From the NCBI GenBank assembly GCA_963843755.1, contig CAWJLS010000001.1, positions 27,749-91,748 on the forward strand: a stretch of DNA of 64,000 bases, in the 5' to 3' direction. The position numbers were made by a program, and so were the translations under genes. Positions 28,301 to 57,761 of the stretch are shown here, piece by piece. Below the pieces are notes generated by a model, which had not been told where the DNA came from, did no database searches, and saw only the letters and a list, made by a program, of their open reading frames with translations. The stretch comes from an uncultured Acidobacteriota bacterium (GTDB taxonomy: Bacteria > Acidobacteriota > Thermoanaerobaculia > Multivoradales > DATKCC01). The stretch's first letter is position 1. Every line of letters begins with the position of its first letter.

Positions 28301-28852
28301 ATGAACATCGAATACGTGGGTAGGAACTACACCGTGGACGACAGCGTCCGGGCATATATCGAGGGCAAGCTGGGCAAGGTGAGCAAGTTCGTCCAGGAGC
28401 CGGTCGAGATCCGGGTGACCCTCGAGACCGAAAAACACCGCCACATCGCGGAGCTCCACATCGCGCACAAGAACGGGGTCTTCCAGGCCACCGAAGAGAC
28501 GGGGGACATGTACGACGCCCTCAACATGGCCCTCGAGAAGCTCGAAAAGCAGGTCCGGCGGTCGAAGAAGAAGGCGATCGACCGCCGTCGGCGCGCCGAC
28601 AGAACTGAGACCAACGGCCAGCGGTGGCCGCTCGAGGTGTTCGCCCCGGGCAGCTTCGCGGCCGGCGCCGAGCGCAAGATCATCAAGACCACCCATCTGC
28701 CCATCAAGCCGATGTCCATCGAGGAGGCCGCCCTCCTTCTCGAAGGGGCGAAGAACGAGTTCATCGTCTTCCGCGACTCCACCACCGACCGGGTGAGCGT
28801 CCTCTACAAGCGCAAGGACGAGAACTACGGCCTGATCGCGCCCGAGTTCTGA
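28301..28852 (+). CDS. hpf: Ribosome hibernation promoting factor (long HPF)
   Basis: Ribosomal S30AE N-domain (DMYDALNMALEKLEKQVRR) plus C-terminal KPMSIEEA...YKRKDENYGLI. Confidence 0.93.
   Translation: MNIEYVGRNYTVDDSVRAYIEGKLGKVSKFVQEPVEIRVTLETEKHRHIAELHIAHKNGVFQATEETGDMYDALNMALEKLEKQVRRSKKKAIDRRRRADRTETNGQRWPLEVFAPGSFAAGAERKIIKTTHLPIKPMSIEEAALLLEGAKNEFIVFRDSTTDRVSVLYKRKDENYGLIAPEF
28586..28601. promoter_or_regulatory. parS-like palindrome copy inside hpf
   Basis: CGTCGGCGCGCCGACA, 15/16 match to TGTCGGCGCGCCGACA. Confidence 0.55.
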
Positions 28853-35283: not shown

Positions 35284-36705
35284 ATGACGCGAACACCACG
35301 CCGCTTCTTCATCGAAACCTGGGGCTGCCAGATGAACGAGCTGGACACCCAGCGCATGGCAGGCCAGCTCATGCAGCAGGGCATGCTCCCGACCCGGGAG
35401 GCGGCCGAGGCCGACCTGGTCCTGCTCAACTCGTGCAGCGTTCGTGAAAATGCGCAGAACAAGGTCTACTCGCGCATCGGGGAGTACCGGGCGTTCAAGA
35501 GCGAGCGGGAGGTGCTGATCGGCCTGTGCGGCTGCGTCGCCCAGCAGGAGGGGGAGGCCGCCCTCGACCGCGCCCCCGAGCTCGACTTCGTCCTCGGCCC
35601 GGCCCGGGTCGGCGAGCTCCGGGACATCGTCGCCCGCCGCCGGGCGGGGGAGCGGGTGGTGGCCACCGGCTTCCCGGAAGAGCGCGCGTTCGATCTCGAC
35701 GCCATCTCCCGCGACGGCGTCTACAAGGGCATGGTGACCTGCATCGAAGGGTGCGACAAGCGGTGCACCTTCTGCATCGTGCCCAGCACCCGCGGCCCCG
35801 AGCGCTGTCGCCCGATGGCCGAGATCCTGCGCGAGGTGCGCCACCTGGTCGACTACGGCTTCCGCGAGATCGAGCTCCTCGGCCAGACGATCAACCACTG
35901 GCGCGAGCCCGACCACCCGGCCGGGCCCTCGTCGAATAGTCCTAACCAACACAAAGGAAAGGACTTCGCCGACCTCCTGGACGCGGTGGCGACGATCCCC
36001 GGCGTCGAGCGGCTGCGCTTCATCACCTCCTACCCGCGGGACTTCACGCCCGCCATGATCGCCGCGTTCGCCCGGCACGAGGCCATCTGCCCCTACCTCC
36101 ACCTGCCGGTCCAGTCCGGCTCCGACCCGGTGCTGCGCCGCATGGGGCGGGGCTACACGGTGGGCTCCTACCTCGCGCTGATCGACCAGATCCGCGAGGC
36201 CCGCCCCGGCGTGGTCTTCTCGACCGACCTGATCGTCGGCTTCCCGGGAGAGACGGAGGAGCAGTTCGAAGAGACGGTGCGGCTGATCGAGCGGGTGCGC
36301 TACGGCTCGGTCTACGCCTTCAAGTACTCACCCCGGCCGGGGACCGCGGCGCCACGGCTCGACGGCACGGTCGACCCGGAGGTGGCCAACCGCCGGCTGA
36401 ACGACCTGTTCGCCGTCCAGGCCGAGATCCAGAGGGAGCTCAACGCGGCGCTGGTGGGGGAGCGGTTCGAGGTCATCGTCACCGGGTGGGGGAAGGAGCC
36501 CGGGTTCCAGACCGGCCGTACCCCGTGCCACCGCATGGTGAACTTCGCCGCCGGCCCCCACCCGACCGCCCTCGGCAGCCTGGTCGAGGTGGAGATCGAC
36601 CGGTCGTATCCTCATAGCCTGATCGGGCATCGAGTGGGCGTGGGGGCGGGGGAGGAGCAGGACGCGGCGACGGAGCGGGGGCCGCGCTTGGCCGTCTTGC
36701 GGTAG
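35284..36705 (+). CDS. miaB: tRNA-2-methylthio-N6-dimethylallyladenosine synthase
   Basis: TWGCQMN, NSCSVR, GCVAQ, radical SAM GCDKRCTFC, HLPVQSGS, YSPRPGT, TRAM domain. Confidence 0.95.
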   Translation: MTRTPRRFFIETWGCQMNELDTQRMAGQLMQQGMLPTREAAEADLVLLNSCSVRENAQNKVYSRIGEYRAFKSEREVLIGLCGCVAQQEGEAALDRAPELDFVLGPARVGELRDIVARRRAGERVVATGFPEERAFDLDAISRDGVYKGMVTCIEGCDKRCTFCIVPSTRGPERCRPMAEILREVRHLVDYGFREIELLGQTINHWREPDHPAGPSSNSPNQHKGKDFADLLDAVATIPGVERLRFITSYPRDFTPAMIAAFARHEAICPYLHLPVQSGSDPVLRRMGRGYTVGSYLALIDQIREARPGVVFSTDLIVGFPGETEEQFEETVRLIERVRYGSVYAFKYSPRPGTAAPRLDGTVDPEVANRRLNDLFAVQAEIQRELNAALVGERFEVIVTGWGKEPGFQTGRTPCHRMVNFAAGPHPTALGSLVEVEIDRSYPHSLIGHRVGVGAGEEQDAATERGPRLAVLR

Positions 36706-36729
36706 GTAGCGCGTGGGAGGGGTTCGCCG

Positions 36730-36893
36730 GAGCGGGTGGCGAGGGGACCGGCTCCGGGACGGCGCGACGAACCGGACGGGTGGGGGATCAACGCGCACCT
36801 CGGCATGGCCCGCGTCGGGGCGGGACGGACCGCTCTGACGCTACCGCGGACGCGGTCCATGACGCCCTCCACCGGTCCCCTCGCCACCCGCTC
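36730..36893. repeat. 164-bp element bounded by perfect 22-bp inverted repeats
   Basis: GAGCGGGTGGCGAGGGGACCGG (36730-36751) and its exact reverse complement (36872-36893). Confidence 0.8.
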
Positions 36894-37132
36894 GGTCCGG
36901 ACCGTCTGCCTCGGTCGGTCGACCTCTCGTCGCATTCGACAAGCCTCCGCCGCATTCGGCGGTGGAAGCCGCGAGCCGTGTCCTGGTGGGGAAGAGAATC
37001 GGGAACAGCGGCTGGACCGGCGACGACAGGCGAACGGTGTGCCCATGGAGCGTCCTCCCGGACGCTCCCGACAAACGCCCCGCGTTTCGACTCTCCCCTC
37101 TCCCCATTGTCGACAGGTCTTTCGCCCTTCGC

Positions 37133-37161
37133 TTGACCTCACCCGACCCCACGATCAGAAT
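37133..37161 (+). promoter_or_regulatory. Sigma70 promoter, likely leaderless transcript
   Basis: TTGACC-N17-CAGAAT-N6-ATG, no Shine-Dalgarno. Confidence 0.65.
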
Positions 37162-37167
37162 ACCCCC

Positions 37168-37668
37168 ATGACCGAAACCTCCGACGCGCTTCGCATGGAG
37201 ATCAAAGGGTTGATGCTCGACCCCGCCTCCAACGTGCCCATCGTCATCCTGCGCGACGAAGAGAGCGACGTCTTCCTCCCGATCTGGATCGGTGTGTTCG
37301 AGGCCAACGCCATCGCCCTGCGCATCGAAGGAGTCGAGCCGCCGCGCCCGATGACCCACGATCTCCTGCTGGCGACGCTCACCCATCTCGGCGCGGCGAT
37401 CGAGCGCATCGTCATCTCCGACCTGCGAGACAGCACCTTCTTCGCCCGCATCCACCTCGACCGCGGCGGGACCAAGATGACCCTCGACTCCCGCCCCAGC
37501 GACGCCATCGCCCTCGCCCTGCGCGCCGACGCCCCCATCTTCGTCCTGCGGGCCGTCCTCGAGAAGGCCCACGCCGTCGACCACTCCCACGAGGCCACCG
37601 AAGAAGAGAAGATCCGCAAGATGCTCGAAGAGCTCGGCCCCGAGGATCTCGGCAAGTACACCATGTAG
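37168..37668 (+). CDS. Bifunctional nuclease family (DUF151) protein
   Basis: LPIWIGVFEANAI, RPMTHDLL, FFARIHL, DSRPSDAIALALR. Confidence 0.92.
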   Translation: MTETSDALRMEIKGLMLDPASNVPIVILRDEESDVFLPIWIGVFEANAIALRIEGVEPPRPMTHDLLLATLTHLGAAIERIVISDLRDSTFFARIHLDRGGTKMTLDSRPSDAIALALRADAPIFVLRAVLEKAHAVDHSHEATEEEKIRKMLEELGPEDLGKYTM

Positions 37669-37672
37669 TCCC

Positions 37673-37717
37673 GGCCAGCGATCCCGCCCCTGTGGGCCCT
37701 CCGCGGGATCGCTGGCC
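37673..37717 (+). terminator. Strong hairpin after the DUF151 gene
   Basis: 15-bp perfect stem GGCCAGCGATCCCGC/GCGGGATCGCTGGCC; no U-tract. Confidence 0.6.
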
Positions 37718-37782
37718 CTGCCCACCCGCCCCCGCCCGTCCCCCAACGACGAAAGCCCTCCGTCCTCGGCCCCCGGAGTGTC

Positions 37783-37804
37783 GGATGTCGGCGCGCCGAC
37801 ATCC
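37783..37804. promoter_or_regulatory. parS-like palindrome copy 1 (22-bp perfect palindrome)
   Basis: GGATGTCGGCGCGCCGACATCC; 16-bp core at 37786-37801. Confidence 0.65.
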
Positions 37805-37863
37805 CGTCGGCGCCGCCGCCGTCCACTCCTCCAAGTCGCGCTGCCGCAAGAGGTTCCACTCGA

Positions 37864-37879
37864 TGTCGGCGCGCCGACA
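37864..37879. promoter_or_regulatory. parS-like palindrome copy 2
   Basis: TGTCGGCGCGCCGACA, perfect. Confidence 0.65.
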
Positions 37880-37995
37880 GACGACCGCGCGCGGCACCGT
37901 CGCGCGCCGGGCCGGTCGCGAGGGGCCCGGTGCACGGGGCCGTCCGGGCGTCCCCCCGCGCGCGAACCGGACCCCAGGCCACCGAGCGTTCGGGC

Positions 37996-38011
37996 GGTCG
38001 GCGCGCCGACA
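37996..38011. promoter_or_regulatory. parS-like palindrome copy 3
   Basis: GGTCGGCGCGCCGACA, 15/16. Confidence 0.6.
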
Positions 38012-38106
38012 GGGCCTCTGCCGCCCACCCGGACCCCGCCGGTCGCCACCCCGTACGCGCCCGTGCGCCGAACGCCTCCGCGGCGCCGCGATCCTGGTCC
38101 CGCGGG

Positions 38107-38135
38107 TTGACCTCGTCCGAGCCATTCTGTACATT
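38107..38135 (+). promoter_or_regulatory. Sigma70 promoter for parAB
   Basis: TTGACC-N17-TACATT, 11 nt before ATG, no Shine-Dalgarno. Confidence 0.7.
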
Positions 38136-38146
38136 CCCGCCGACCT

Positions 38147-38905
38147 ATGATCATCGCGATCACCAATCAGAAGGGCGGCGTCGGCAAGACCACGACCGCC
38201 ATCAACCTCTCCGCAGCGCTCGCCAACAAGGGGCTCAAGACTCTCCTGGTCGACCTCGATCCTCAGGCGAACAGCTCGATGTCCTTCATGGACGTCCACG
38301 ACCTGGGCCAGTCGATCTACGAGGCGCTCACCGAGCCCGAGATCACCGTCGAATCCATCACGCGGCCGGTCGAGCAGATTCCCCATCTCGACCTGGCGCC
38401 CGCGGCGATCTCTCTCGCCAAGATCGAGTCGAAGCTCCTGGGCGAGCTCGACAGTCACTTCCGGCTCAAGGACGAGCTCGCGTCGGTGCGGGACGTCTAC
38501 GACAACATCATCATCGACACGCCCCCGACGCTCGGCATCATCACGGTCAACGCCCTGGTGGCCGCGACCCACGTGCTGGTGCCGATCCAGTCGAGCTACT
38601 TCGCCCTGGAAGGGACCGACGACCTGCTGGAGACGATCGACAAGATCAAGCAGCGGGCCAACCCGGAGCTGCAGCTCCTGGGCGCGCTGATCACGCTCTA
38701 CGACAAGCGGACCCTGCTGTCGCGCGACATCCAGGACCAGATCAGCGGCGTGTTCGGCGACAAGGTGTTCAAGACGCTGATCACCAAGAGCGTCCGCCTC
38801 GAGGAGAGTCCGGCGTACCACGAGTCGATCTTCAGCTTCGCGCCCAACTCGAGCGGAGCCGCCGAGTACTACCAGTTGTCGGAAGAGGTTCTGAGCCGGG
38901 TCTGA
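38147..38905 (+). CDS. parA: ParA/Soj-family ATPase
   Basis: Deviant Walker A NQKGGVGKTT, LVDLDPQAN, IIDTPP, VLVPIQSSYFALEG; no N-terminal HTH. Confidence 0.95.
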   Translation: MIIAITNQKGGVGKTTTAINLSAALANKGLKTLLVDLDPQANSSMSFMDVHDLGQSIYEALTEPEITVESITRPVEQIPHLDLAPAAISLAKIESKLLGELDSHFRLKDELASVRDVYDNIIIDTPPTLGIITVNALVAATHVLVPIQSSYFALEGTDDLLETIDKIKQRANPELQLLGALITLYDKRTLLSRDIQDQISGVFGDKVFKTLITKSVRLEESPAYHESIFSFAPNSSGAAEYYQLSEEVLSRV

Positions 38906-39000
38906 GACCCGAACGCCGGACCGGGGCGGGCCGCGCGCCGGGCCCGAGCGGAGACCGGGCGCGGTCGCAGCCGAGACGGACGACGAGAGGAGACGCGGGG

Positions 39001-39903
39001 ATGACGACGAAGAAGCGCGGCTTGCCGGTGCGGGTCAAGATGCGGCACGACAACCACTTCGTGGAGGAGCTCACGACGCGCCACGAGGTGCCGGTCGGTC
39101 GCATGGTCGCCCTGGCGAACGTCGAGCCCGACCCCCACCAGCCGCGCACCATCATGGGCGACCTCGCCGACCTGGTGGCCTCGGTCCGGGAGCGCGGCGT
39201 CCTCGAGCCGATCCTCGTCCGCCGGATCGACACCGACGGCGACGGGGAGGAGGACGGCACCGACGACGACCGCGCGGATGCCGAGCGCGCCGAAACCTTC
39301 CGCATCATCTCCGGTGAGCGCCGCTACCGCGCCGCGCAGCAGGCCGGGCTGTTCGAGGTGCCGGTCATCGAGATGGAGGTGACCGAGCAAGAGGCGCTCG
39401 AGATCGCCCTGATCGAGAACCTCCAGCGCAAGGACCTCACCCCCTTCGAAGAGGCCGAGGGCTACCAGACCCTGGCCCAGCTCCACGGCTACACCCACGA
39501 GGAGATCTCCGAGGCGGTGGGGAAGTCCCGCACCGTGATCACCGAGAGCCTCGCCCTCCTCCAGATGCCGCCGCGGGTGCGCGACGCGGTCCAGGCCCTG
39601 GGGATCACCACCAAGTCGCTTCTGCTCGAGGTGTTGAAGGCGGGGAGCGAGGAGGAGATGATCCGCCTGCTCGAAGAGGTCTCGAGCCACGGCCTCAACC
39701 GCGACGACCTGCGCCAGCGTTTGCGCCGGCGCGACCGGGCGACCAGCAAGCCGCGGCGCACGCCCTACGCTTTCAAGTTCCGGGCCCCGGACAAGAGCTA
39801 CACCCTCAACCTCACCTTCCGCCAGAGCGAGGTCGACCGCCAGGATCTGATCCAGGCCCTGGAGCAGATCCTCGGCGAGCTCCGCCAGCAGGCGGCCAGC
39901 TAG
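39001..39903 (+). CDS. parB: ParB/Spo0J-family CTP clamp protein with divergent HTH
   Basis: PHQPR, GVLEPILVR, ISGERRYRA, IENLQRKDL..FEEA, HTH THEEISEAVGKSR; ATG 39001. Confidence 0.92.
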   Translation: MTTKKRGLPVRVKMRHDNHFVEELTTRHEVPVGRMVALANVEPDPHQPRTIMGDLADLVASVRERGVLEPILVRRIDTDGDGEEDGTDDDRADAERAETFRIISGERRYRAAQQAGLFEVPVIEMEVTEQEALEIALIENLQRKDLTPFEEAEGYQTLAQLHGYTHEEISEAVGKSRTVITESLALLQMPPRVRDAVQALGITTKSLLLEVLKAGSEEEMIRLLEEVSSHGLNRDDLRQRLRRRDRATSKPRRTPYAFKFRAPDKSYTLNLTFRQSEVDRQDLIQALEQILGELRQQAAS

Positions 39904-40197
39904 GAGTCGGCGCGGCAGGACCGCGCAGACTCTCCCAGGCTCCTTCCCGCGGCCGGCGCCCGGCCGCTCGCACCCCCTCCTCTCGGCCACCCGGCGGCCG
40001 TACCGAGCAGGGGAGAGGTCCGCCTGTCGGACGGGCCTCCCCTTGCCCGCGTCCCCTCCTCGTACCCCGTGCCGCGCAACAGAGAGAACCGACGGAGCCG
40101 GGCATGTCGAGGCGGACCAAGGAGGCCGAACCGTGCCCGGCATGCTGCACGCCGATCCTTATTGAGACGATGGCGTGACCGCATATTCGCGTCGGAC

Positions 40198-40217
40198 ATA
40201 TCCACAGGTCTTCCACA
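40198..40217 (+). promoter_or_regulatory. Two DnaA-box-like 9-mers, 11 bp apart
   Basis: ATATCCACA and TCTTCCACA, each one mismatch from TTWTNCACA. Confidence 0.35.
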
Positions 40218-40443
40218 GCATCCGCACCCCTCGCGAACGACGGCAGAGCGCCGCCTGGCCGAGGCGAATCGGCCCCTCCGCCGAAGCCAGAGAGACCCGA
40301 AAGCGGGGAGCCAGGACGCGCGCCCCAGGACGGAGCCAGAGAGCAGAGCGGGGCGACAGGGCGGGGCGAGGAGACCACCAGCCCGGCATCATCGACAGCC
40401 TTTCGTCGCGCCTCGCTCGCCGTCCCGCCTTGCTCGCTCCGTA

Positions 40444-40471
40444 ACTTTACATAATGTATCTTATCGGACCC
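40444..40471 (-). other. dif site (XerC/XerD chromosome dimer resolution)
   Basis: Minus strand GGGTCCGATAA-GATACA-TTATGTAAAGT: 11-6-11 layout; XerD arm 10/11 to B. subtilis TTATGTAAACT, 9/11 to E. coli TTATGTTAAAT; intergenic; gene strand bias flips here. Confidence 0.88.
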
Positions 40472-40613
40472 TGCGTTCGGCCGGGTCTCGGCTAGATCTC
40501 AGCCAGCTCTCGGCCCGGTCGACGCCCGGTCTGCGCTCGGTCCCGAGCCCTCGATCCGCCGTCCGGTCAGATCTGCCGACCCGCTGGCCGACGTCGTCTC
40601 ACCTCTGGTCTTT

Positions 40614-41051
40614 TCATCTCTGGCCGCTCGCTCCGTCCGGCCGCCACTCGGCAGCCAGATCTTCGTCCTCCTCGAGACGGAGCTTCGCCAGCTTCGCCGC
40701 GCCCGGGATGTGCTCCGCGAGCCGGCGTGCGATCCACTGGATGAGGTTCTCGCTCGACGGGATGTCCCGTCCCGGACCGAACGCCTCGATCGCCTCGTTG
40801 AGATGATGATGATCGAGCGGCTCGAGGACTTCCGAAGCGACCAGGAGGTCGAGCGCTCCGAGGTCGACCAGGAACCCGGTCTCCGGGTCGGGATCGCCGG
40901 CGACGGTCACGAACAGGCGGTAGTTGTGTCCGTGGCCCGGAAGGTTGGCGCACTTGCCGAACCGGCGGCGGTTTTCCTCCTCGGACCAGTCCGGCCGGCG
41001 GTACAGGTGACTCGCGCTGAATCGGTAGCGACGTTCCAGGTGAATGGGCAT
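40614..41051 (-). CDS. queD: 6-carboxy-tetrahydropterin synthase / PTPS family
   Basis: FSASH, GKCANLPGHGHNY, LDHHHLN, PSSENL; ATG 41051. QueD versus other PTPS roles not resolved. Confidence 0.85.
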   Translation of the reverse strand: MPIHLERRYRFSASHLYRRPDWSEEENRRRFGKCANLPGHGHNYRLFVTVAGDPDPETGFLVDLGALDLLVASEVLEPLDHHHLNEAIEAFGPGRDIPSSENLIQWIARRLAEHIPGAAKLAKLRLEEDEDLAAEWRPDGASGQR

Positions 41052-41075
41052 GGCGCTACTGTACAATCGGTCCCC
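41052..41075. promoter_or_regulatory. Overlapping divergent -10 elements
   Basis: 24-bp gap; TACAGT (minus, 41058-41063) is 6 nt from the queD ATG and TACAAT (plus, 41062-41067) is 8 nt from the lptFG GTG. Confidence 0.6.
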
Positions 41076-43463
41076 GTGCGGTGGTTGCTCGACCGGTACC
41101 TCCTTCGGGAAATCGCAGGCCCTCTTGGCCTCGGTTTCCTCGTCTACACGTTCATCCTCCTGCTGCAGGCGCTGTTCAAGTCGGCGGAGATGATCATCCG
41201 TCGGGGGCTCCCCGTGTCGACGGTCGGCGAGCTGCTGGCCCTGTCGCTGCCCAACATCGTCGTCCTCACCATCCCGATGTCGCTGCTTTTCGGGGTGCTG
41301 ATCGCCATCGGCCGGATGTCGTCGGACAGCGAGCTGGTGGCCATGCGGGCGACCGGCATCAGCCTGCTCAGCCTGTACCGGCCGATCCTCCTCCTCTCCA
41401 CCTTCTTCTTCCTGGTCAACACGGTGTTGATGGTCTGGGTGCTCCCCTGGGGCAACCACCGGCTGCAGCTCGAGCGGCTCGACATCCTCACCCAGAGCAT
41501 CTCGACCCAGGTCGAGCCGCGGATCTTCTGGGACGAGTGGGAGGACCAGGTGCTCTACGTCTTCGAGACCTCGGAGAGCGGAGACTCCTGGCGCGGCGTC
41601 TTCCTCGCCCAGTCGATCCCGTCGACCCACACCAACCAGGTGACCGTCGCCGAGCGCGGCCGGGTCCGGGTCGATCGCGACGGCGAACGGGTCGTGCTCG
41701 AGCTCTCGAACGCCCAGGTCCACGAGGTCGACCTGTCGAAGCCGGACTCCTACCAGATCAGCTCCCACGACAGCCTGGAGGTGGTGCTCGAAGACCAGTT
41801 CTCCACCGAGCAACGGGCGCAGATCTCCGCCTCGAAAGGAGTCCGGGAGCTCAGCCTGCCGGAGCTCACTCAGTGGATGCACGACCCGAAGCGCACGGCG
41901 GAGACCCGCCGCCTGGCCCGGGTCGAGATCCACAAGAAGTTCTCGATCCCGTTCGCCTGCATCGTGTTCGGGATCTTCGCGTTGCCGCTCGGCTTCGACA
42001 CCAGCCGCGGTGGCAAGGCGTCCGGGTTCGCGCTCTCGATCCTGGTGATCGTCGTCTACTGGGTGCTGCTCGACACCGGCGAGAAATCCGCGGAGGCCGG
42101 CAACCTGGCGCCGTGGCTCGCCATGTGGGGTCCCAACATCCTCCTGTCCGGCCTCGGGCTCTTCCTGCTCGCCCGGCGCAACCGCGACAAGAGCCTGCTG
42201 CTGACCAAGATCGACCGCTGGATCCGCCGGGATCTGTGGGCCCGGGTCCACTTCTTCCAGCGGCGCCGCCAGGAGCGGGCGGCCCGCCGGCGGGCCGTGC
42301 GGCTCGAGCGGGAGCGCGCGCGCCACGACGACCCGCACCTGGTCATCCGGCTCCCCCGCGTCCGGGTCTGGGTGCCGAACCTGATCGACCGCTACGTCTT
42401 CCGCGTCTTCACCAGCGTCTTCGGCCTGGTCCTCCTGTCGGGGCTCTCGATCTACCTGGTGGCGGACCTGACCGGCAAGGCGGACGAGATCATGAAGAAT
42501 CACGTCCCCCGATCGGTGATCCTGCAGTACTACAAGTACTCGTCGCTTCAGATGTTCTACGAGATCTCGCCGATCCTCGTGCTGGTGGCGACGCTCATCA
42601 CCTTCAGCCTGCTGTCGAAGTCCAACGAGGTCATGGCCTTCAAGGCGCTCGGCGTCAGCCTCTACCGGCTGGCCGTGCCGGCGGTGGCGGCGGCGCTGGC
42701 GATCACGATCTTCACCGCCTTCCTGGAGACCGAGGTCCTCCCCGCCTCCAACGAGAAGGTGGCGCGCCTCGACGACCGGATCCGCGGACGCGAGACCGCG
42801 CGGACCTATCGCCGCGCCGACAGGCAGTGGCTCTTCGGGCAGGACCGCTATATCTACAACTACATCCACTACGACCCCGAGCGCCAGACGCTCCACCGGC
42901 TGCAGGTGTTCGAGTTCGATCCGGACACCCACCAGCTCGTCGGCCGCCTGGTCGCCCAGCGTGCCACCTACGATCACGACGGATGGTGGAAGTTCGAGGA
43001 CGGCTGGTCGCGGACCTTCTCCGACAAGCGGGTCAGCCAGTACGACCGCTTCGCCGGCGACGTCCTCGGCCGCTTCCCCGAGGACCCCCACTACTTCGAC
43101 AGCGAGATCCGCCCGCCCGAGCAGATGAGCTACGGCCAGCTCAAGGACTACATCGGCGAGGTGGAACGGAGCGGCCAGTCGGTGCCGGAGCTCAAGGTGC
43201 AGCTCCAGAGCAAGATCGCCTACCCGGCGATCAGCCTGGTCATGGCGCTGGTCGCCCTCCCCTTCGCGTTCCGGCTGGGGCGGCAGGGCGCGCTCTACGG
43301 CGTCGGTCTGTCGATCGTCCTGGGGATGGTCTTCCTGGCGATCTACGCCTTCTTCACCACCCTCGGCGAGGCCGGTGCGCTGCCACCCATGGTCGCGGTA
43401 TGGAGCCCGAACGTGGTCTTCGGGCTGTTCGCGGTCTACCTCTTCCTCGGCGTCAGAACCTGA
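41076..43463 (+). CDS. lptFG: Fused LptF-LptG LPS export permease
   Basis: Two tandem YjgP/YjgQ modules (LDRYLLREI...SSDSELVAMRATGISL; IDRYVFR...KSNEVMAFKALGVSL). Confidence 0.92.
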   Translation: MRWLLDRYLLREIAGPLGLGFLVYTFILLLQALFKSAEMIIRRGLPVSTVGELLALSLPNIVVLTIPMSLLFGVLIAIGRMSSDSELVAMRATGISLLSLYRPILLLSTFFFLVNTVLMVWVLPWGNHRLQLERLDILTQSISTQVEPRIFWDEWEDQVLYVFETSESGDSWRGVFLAQSIPSTHTNQVTVAERGRVRVDRDGERVVLELSNAQVHEVDLSKPDSYQISSHDSLEVVLEDQFSTEQRAQISASKGVRELSLPELTQWMHDPKRTAETRRLARVEIHKKFSIPFACIVFGIFALPLGFDTSRGGKASGFALSILVIVVYWVLLDTGEKSAEAGNLAPWLAMWGPNILLSGLGLFLLARRNRDKSLLLTKIDRWIRRDLWARVHFFQRRRQERAARRRAVRLERERARHDDPHLVIRLPRVRVWVPNLIDRYVFRVFTSVFGLVLLSGLSIYLVADLTGKADEIMKNHVPRSVILQYYKYSSLQMFYEISPILVLVATLITFSLLSKSNEVMAFKALGVSLYRLAVPAVAAALAITIFTAFLETEVLPASNEKVARLDDRIRGRETARTYRRADRQWLFGQDRYIYNYIHYDPERQTLHRLQVFEFDPDTHQLVGRLVAQRATYDHDGWWKFEDGWSRTFSDKRVSQYDRFAGDVLGRFPEDPHYFDSEIRPPEQMSYGQLKDYIGEVERSGQSVPELKVQLQSKIAYPAISLVMALVALPFAFRLGRQGALYGVGLSIVLGMVFLAIYAFFTTLGEAGALPPMVAVWSPNVVFGLFAVYLFLGVRT

Positions 43464-57745: not shown

Positions 57746-57761
57746 CGTCGGCGCGCCGACG
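57746..57761. promoter_or_regulatory. parS-like palindrome copy (may double as terminator hairpin)
   Basis: CGTCGGCGCGCCGACG, with the identical 14-bp core, between convergent hemE and acyl-CoA dehydrogenase. Confidence 0.5.

Follow-up and report, generated by a model that had tools for sequence, protein, structure and literature searches.

A 28-bp sequence at positions 40444-40471 of the analysed window is very probably the chromosomal dif site of an Acidobacteriota genome, lying in the region where its replication terminates, as judged from comparison of the sequence with relatives and with characterised sites. The window is a 64,000-nt stretch of DNA (G000:C1:27749-91748) from a 13-contig draft genome of 5.05 Mb and 71% GC, which is Thermoanaerobaculia-like and represents a poorly studied, uncultured lineage of Acidobacteriota. 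A terminus at this position had been proposed in a sequence-only reading of the DNA, and it is now supported by a unique and conserved site, by the location of the site roughly opposite dnaA in related genomes, by the convergence of polar motifs upon it, and by the Xer and FtsK genes that the genome encodes. While dif belongs to textbook biology, what is new here is the predicted site and its polar word in a Thermoanaerobaculia-like lineage. The site assigns the terminus to contig C1 and the origin to contig C11, which anchors the replication map of an uncultured draft genome, and it serves as a fixed landmark for a more unusual ParAB system that adjoins it.

Layout and conservation of the 28-bp site

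Read on the minus strand, the site consists of an XerC arm, a 6-bp centre and an XerD arm (GGGTCCGATAA - GATACA - TTATGTAAAGT), with the inner ATAA and TTAT inverted around the centre. On contig C1 it occupies positions 68192-68219. Its parts, in window coordinates, are as follows:

40444-40471, minus strand: dif site, 28 bp (11-bp XerC arm, 6-bp centre and 11-bp XerD arm), conserved and the sole match genome-wide
40444-40454, minus strand: predicted XerD-binding arm, TTATGTAAAGT, with 9/11 identity to the E. coli XerD arm and fitting the form TTATGTNAANT
40455-40460, minus strand: central 6-bp strand-exchange region, GATACA on the minus and TGTATC on the plus strand, the part that varies among relatives while the arms are fixed
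40461-40471, minus strand: predicted XerC-binding arm, GGGTCCGATAA, with 7/11 identity to E. coli and 9/11 to the Ellin345 prediction

Direct reading of the 28-mer confirmed two proposals of the sequence-only reading, the XerC/XerD layout (11-6-11 with inner ATAA/TTAT) and the agreement of a 15-base plus-strand core with E. coli dif at 14 of 15 positions. The arm order that it had implied did not stand. Because the 15-base core is nearly palindromic, the orientation is decided by the outer arms, and these put the XerD arm left and the XerC arm right of the centre: the minus strand matches E. coli dif at 19/28 positions (XerC arm 7/11, centre 3/6, XerD arm 9/11), as against 16/28 by hand count for the plus strand. 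In a scan of all contigs on both strands, no other 28-mer reached at least 18/28 identity together with at least 8/11 in the XerD arm, and thus no better dif match, which had been named as evidence that would speak against the site, was found elsewhere. This one match concerns 5.05 Mb of a draft whose completeness is estimated at 82%; roughly 18% of the genome may be unassembled, where a second copy is possible. Within the window, the XerD arm with up to one mismatch occurred once, compared with no occurrence in 100 shuffles. Neither the genome-wide 28-mer scan nor the XerD-arm scan of the window revealed second or degenerate dif copies or an IMEX.

The site is shared with relatives at several levels of stringency. 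Of 41 genomes of the same order, 10 contain the 28-mer with up to three mismatches, each exactly once, and the reversed-pattern controls had no match. When the arms were searched with a free 6-bp centre and up to two mismatches, matches were obtained in 38 of the 41 genomes (33 of the 34 of high quality), mostly in single copy. Both arms are fixed and the 6-bp centre varies among the relatives, which is the pattern expected of Xer sites; the XerD arm has the form TTATGTNAANT in all of them and the XerC-arm core GTCCGATAA is invariant. An alignment of 15 spacers contained dif (about 26 bp) as its only conserved block, the rest being unalignable. Beyond the order, more than 120 species genomes carry a 24-mer family pattern, matched once in each locus; their labels are Thermoanaerobaculia, Holophagae, other Acidobacteriota, Nitrospirota, Desulfobacterota and Myxococcota.

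Sites of this kind have been predicted in the phylum before. Kono et al. (2011; BMC Genomics 12:19; PMC3025954) predicted dif in three Acidobacteria, and also in Nitrospirae and Deltaproteobacteria, from HMM searches and GC skew only; the Thermoanaerobaculia-like MAG lineage was not included in their survey. Each arm of their Ellin345 prediction (PMC3025954 supplement) is identical to the site described here at 9 of 11 positions, with a different central region, and their predicted sites in Geobacter bemidjiensis and Solibacter usitatus (PMC3025954) have the same form as this one.

Some relatives carry further dif-like sequences. In four loci (L002, L003, L004 and L065), an inverted extra XerD arm with part of the centre (16 nt) is located about 60 nt from dif; these loci come from three genomes of genus g6, since L065 and L004 have the same sequence over the aligned spacer. 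An XerD-arm scan found no such extra half-site near dif in this window. One relative with a 10-Mb genome (G015) has seven dif-like matches spread over several contigs, several of them with a GATTA variant arm; the matches could be xrs sites from plasmids, or mobile elements exploiting Xer.

Gene setting and the adjoining ParAB system

The site is located in a non-coding spacer between convergent genes, and two larger gene blocks point at it from either side:

6085-39903, plus strand: left gene block, nearly all on plus and pointing at dif (codon-position GC and family searches)
37786-37801, 37864-37879, 37996-38011, 28586-28601 and 57746-57761: palindromes GTCGGCGCGCCGAC (genome-wide count)
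38147-38905, plus strand: parA2, ParA-family ATPase, first gene of a pair always on the XerD-arm side of dif (Pfam AAA_31/CbiA; synteny)
39001-39903, plus strand: parB2, divergent ParB, with a start codon that is not fixed, 38902-39903 having been used for searches (ParB_N, HTH_ParB, TIGR00180; synteny)
39904-40613, no strand: non-coding spacer of 710 bp holding dif, between the convergent genes parB2 and queD, without codon-position GC periodicity
40614-41054, minus strand: queD-like gene (6-carboxytetrahydropterin synthase family), converging on dif from the right (matches below curated cut-offs; frame analysis)
41100-43463, plus strand: fused lptF-lptG permease gene, conserved right neighbour of dif, with an approximate start (Pfam LptF_LptG in two stretches; synteny)
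43963-64000, minus strand: right gene block, mainly on minus and pointing at dif (codon-position GC and family searches)

Members of the left block are priA, accA, recJ, an lptA-like gene (LptA-domain), lptB, rpoN, ptsI, a MiaB-like gene, a BFN-domain gene, parA2 and parB2, the stop codon of the last being 540 bp from dif. The right block contains two ECF sigma factors, a large histidine kinase, hutU and others. The presence of priA, recJ, rpoN, lpt and accA near the site had been noted earlier, and NCBIfam and Pfam upheld the identities of priA, accA, recJ, lptB, rpoN and a fused lptFG. The previously described switch in coding strand, with 32 of 34 genes on plus to the left and 13 of 15 on minus to the right, was upheld as well, frame-specific GC giving two exceptions per side. 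By this measure, plus-strand coding extends from 6.2 to 39.9 kb, with one 3-kb minus block at 2.85-5.85 kb, and minus-strand coding from 44 to 64 kb, with lptFG at 41.25-43.25 kb and a block at 56.85-57.65 kb as exceptions. Because only about 57% of genes genome-wide are co-oriented with replication, the strand bias around dif, uniform over about 30 kb on each side, is a strong local feature.

The spacer itself matched no Rfam family at either gathering or E-value thresholds, and it yielded no promoter-like site and nothing relevant in the terminator scan. About 250 nt from dif toward parB2, on the XerD-arm side, a second conserved block of about 40 nt (window 40175-40225) is common to several relatives of the same family (L001, L004, L006 and L065) and is without an Rfam match. 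On the other side, three to four imperfect 11-nt direct repeats with 73% identity (window 40477-40520) begin 6 nt beyond the right-hand edge of the XerC arm.

The order of genes around dif is widely kept. We found parA2-parB2-dif-(queD)-lptFG in 10 of the 10 relatives recovered, which belong to four families of the same order, and parA2-parB2-dif-lptFG was syntenic in 29 of the 120 dif-bearing loci of the species collection. All labelled loci among these 29 are from Acidobacteriota, and none of the loci labelled Nitrospirota, Desulfobacterota or Myxococcota within the 120 had this order. The XerD arm faces parB2 in every syntenic locus. The order is conserved across Acidobacteriota classes, and since relatives from across the phylum have dif between these same neighbours, the arrangement is ancestral. 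The lptF and lptG genes form one open reading frame with two LptF_LptG stretches, a fusion that is kept beside dif across the Acidobacteriota loci.

Five copies of a 14-bp GC-rich palindrome, GTCGGCGCGCCGAC, were counted in the genome, all between -12 and +17 kb of dif, and the palindrome is present upstream of parA2. The confinement of all copies to the neighbourhood of dif supports the view of this region as a specialised chromosomal landmark. We tentatively suggest that dif in Acidobacteriota may be part of a conserved terminus module composed of parS2-like palindromes, parA2, parB2, dif and lptFG, with a second ParABS-type system acting on the terminus, which on the strength of gene order, motif placement and the position of the canonical parS and parB beside dnaA on another contig we regard as possible rather than probable. 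If true, this system might position or segregate the dif region, or coordinate with FtsK/XerCD.

Replication signals around the site

Strand-polar words were learned on seven other contigs, oriented by their own GC skew, and the top family was GGGGGAG, with 80-85% of its occurrences on the leading strand of these training contigs. On C1, this word occurs 26 times on plus and 6 times on minus to the left of the site, and 9 times on plus and 66 times on minus to the right (Fisher 6e-12), with corresponding counts of 19/4 versus 2/42 for the 8-mer YGGGGGAG. The maximum-likelihood change point brackets dif:

36648-42351 (C1:64396-70099), no strand: interval of the plus-to-minus change of GGGGGAG

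No contig besides C1 has a plus-to-minus flip of the word. Because the leading-strand bias persists in lagging-strand genes (263 versus 133), GGGGGAG follows replication and not transcription; in the plus-strand genes of C1 alone, it is found 17 times on plus and 3 times on minus to the left, and 4 and 12 times to the right. The flip is repeated at the dif of two closed relatives from another family (23/4 versus 4/14, and 17/2 versus 4/8). An inversion of KOPS polarity at the site, suggested earlier as a check, was seen only weakly for the E. coli KOPS GGGNAGGG (10/8 left versus 14/33 right, p=0.08); GGGGGAG inverts there with p=6e-12. On account of this weak polarity, GGGNAGGG was rejected as the polar word of the lineage. 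GGGGGAG is likely to be its FtsK-orienting word.

Distances between dif and the origin come from relatives, the host genome being a 13-contig draft with dnaA on C11 and dif on C1. The two loci, dif and dnaA, are separated by 0.486 of the chromosome length in a Thermoanaerobaculia chromosome of 3.82 Mb, by 0.472 in a contig of 4.1 Mb and by 0.469 in a chromosome of 9.2 Mb; for two single-contig genomes from the same order, the values are 0.494 and 0.455. Altogether, five of the six single-contig genomes carrying the motif have dif at 0.455-0.494 of the chromosome from dnaA. The exception is a distant genome, the chromosome of Desulfosarcina alkanivorans PL12 (L083), in which the dif 24-mer is 0.145 from dnaA. 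In the host genome, C11 has the origin markers, with dnaA at 108 kb, the canonical parB at 129 kb and a single canonical parS at C11:127410, which is the only genomic copy, none being present near dif. The same contig shows an origin-type GC skew minimum.

Cumulative GC skew, which the sequence-only reading had put forward as a further check, did not mark the site. The raw curve falls monotonically through the window without an inflection at the site, and its maximum on C1 is near 15 kb, 53 kb to the left. Using 10-kb bins on C1 as well as the whole genome, we estimated a coding-strand third-codon C-bias component of about -0.13 and a replication component of about +0.05. Raw skew fails to mark the site because the coding-strand C3 bias outweighs the replication bias, and the two effects largely cancel because gene orientation and replication direction flip at the same place. 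In this genome of 71% GC, raw GC skew reflects the orientation of genes to the same degree as replication and is misleading. With gene strand fitted as a covariate, the best breakpoint for total skew is at C1:60-66 kb, 2-8 kb from the site. Strand-corrected skew of GC3 only has a broad optimum with a breakpoint at C1:12-28 kb, 40-56 kb from the site, and was rejected as a terminus locator for being both broad and distant. Overall, skew supports a terminus somewhere in C1:10-70 kb without pinpointing it. A clear plus-to-minus switch in raw skew was also seen on C13 at about 195 kb. It was rejected as a terminus, since GGGGGAG polarity does not flip with it, and it may be a recent inversion or acquired DNA.

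These skew results bear on whether forks meet at the site. It could be a true dif and the point of FtsK/KOPS convergence without being the physical terminus, if forks usually met tens of kb to its left (C1:10-60 kb), as the raw skew maximum at about 15 kb of C1 and the strand-corrected GC3 breakpoint at C1:12-28 kb would have it. Termination need not occur at dif according to Kono et al. (2011; PMC3025954). We nevertheless consider a displaced meeting place unlikely, since the strand-corrected total skew has its breakpoint at C1:60-66 kb, both the polar motif and the orientation of genes change over at the site itself, and skew is a weak, noisy signal whose replication component is only about 0.05.

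Other explanations would deny that the site is the dif of the host. A protein-binding or regulatory element that merely resembles dif, for example a ParB2 site or an lptFG operator, is suggested by the constant adjacency of the block to parA2-parB2 and lptFG in Acidobacteriota. We judge it very improbable, as the 24-mer is found once per genome in Nitrospirota, Desulfobacterota and Myxococcota loci without a parB2 or lptFG match within up to 8 kb, and fixed arms around a variable 6-bp centre are the layout of an Xer site. In addition, the 14-bp GC-rich palindrome is a better candidate site for ParB2, and in this genome the site is downstream of both flanking genes. Single occurrence, which leaves no attL/attR pair, speaks against an attachment site of an Xer-exploiting mobile element (IMEX or plasmid-type xrs) in place of a host dimer-resolution site, as do the flanking housekeeping genes in phylum-wide conserved synteny and the lack of any integrase, rep or transposase gene identified beside the site. 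Despite the dif-like sites that IMEX and plasmid elements carry, and the seven dif-like matches in the 10-Mb relative, this origin is extremely improbable. Finally, the sequence might be a transcription terminator between convergent genes, or an AT-rich quasi-palindrome that arose by chance. It does lie between convergent genes and is AT-rich in a 71% GC genome, but from base composition alone we expect about 1e-9 chance occurrences of the family pattern's 22 specified bases in this genome, and the terminator scan did not call the site. Conservation across the order and beyond effectively refutes this last explanation, to which we give next to no weight. A chromosomal dif in the terminus region is thus the reading that we adopt.

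Recombination genes and the predicted mechanism

The genome encodes the proteins that a dif site would require. XerD is encoded on C10 with 370 bits, compared with a TIGR02225 equivalog cut-off of 329.6, and a recombinase on C4 scores best as XerC, with 317.5 bits being just under the cut-off of 335. For FtsK, the 4TM, alpha and motor domains are encoded, along with a gamma domain (101.6 bits) that in the assembly is in another reading frame than the motor domains and is absent from theirs. The two frames of this ftsK gene (G000:C12:33375-35921; L131:943-3582, minus strand) diverge at a poly-Arg/poly-Gly simple-sequence run. The frame change may be an artefact of the assembly, and errors of this type could be part of the reason for the low completeness estimate of 82%.

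The site most likely resolves chromosome dimers. Characterised XerCD/dif/FtsK-KOPS systems of E. coli, Vibrio and Bacillus provide the model for the mechanism. Homologous recombination would leave sister chromosomes joined as a dimer, and FtsK anchored at the septum would pump the DNA in a direction set by GGGGGAG-type words that point at dif from both sides, bringing two dif copies together. XerD would occupy the left arm and XerC the right one. Activation of XerD by the FtsK gamma domain would lead to an XerD-first strand exchange, and the dimer would be resolved by two pairs of exchanges over the 6-bp centre. In this scheme, we infer XerCD binding, recombination, the recognition of GGGGGAG by FtsK and the exact meeting place of the forks.

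In comparison with the E. coli dif/XerC-XerD/FtsK-KOPS system, the site described here has the same 28-bp 11-6-11 structure with inner ATAA/TTAT, and an XerD arm identical at 9/11 positions; it occurs once, where G-rich polar motifs and gene orientation converge, and is accompanied by xerD, an xerC-like gene and ftsK with a gamma domain. It differs from E. coli in the XerC arm (7/11) and the centre (3/6), in having a GGGGGAG-type polar word and not GGGNAGGG, and in that raw GC skew does not mark it. Polar sequences known to orient FtsK include E. coli KOPS, B. subtilis SRS and the KOPS-like sequence of Lactococcus, and Hendrickson and Lawrence reportedly described 'architecture imparting sequences'. 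Similar to such lineage-specific FtsK-orienting sequences, GGGGGAG is a short G-rich word that is biased to the leading strand and flips at dif independently of gene strand, whereas the word itself is different and its skew is below that of E. coli KOPS.
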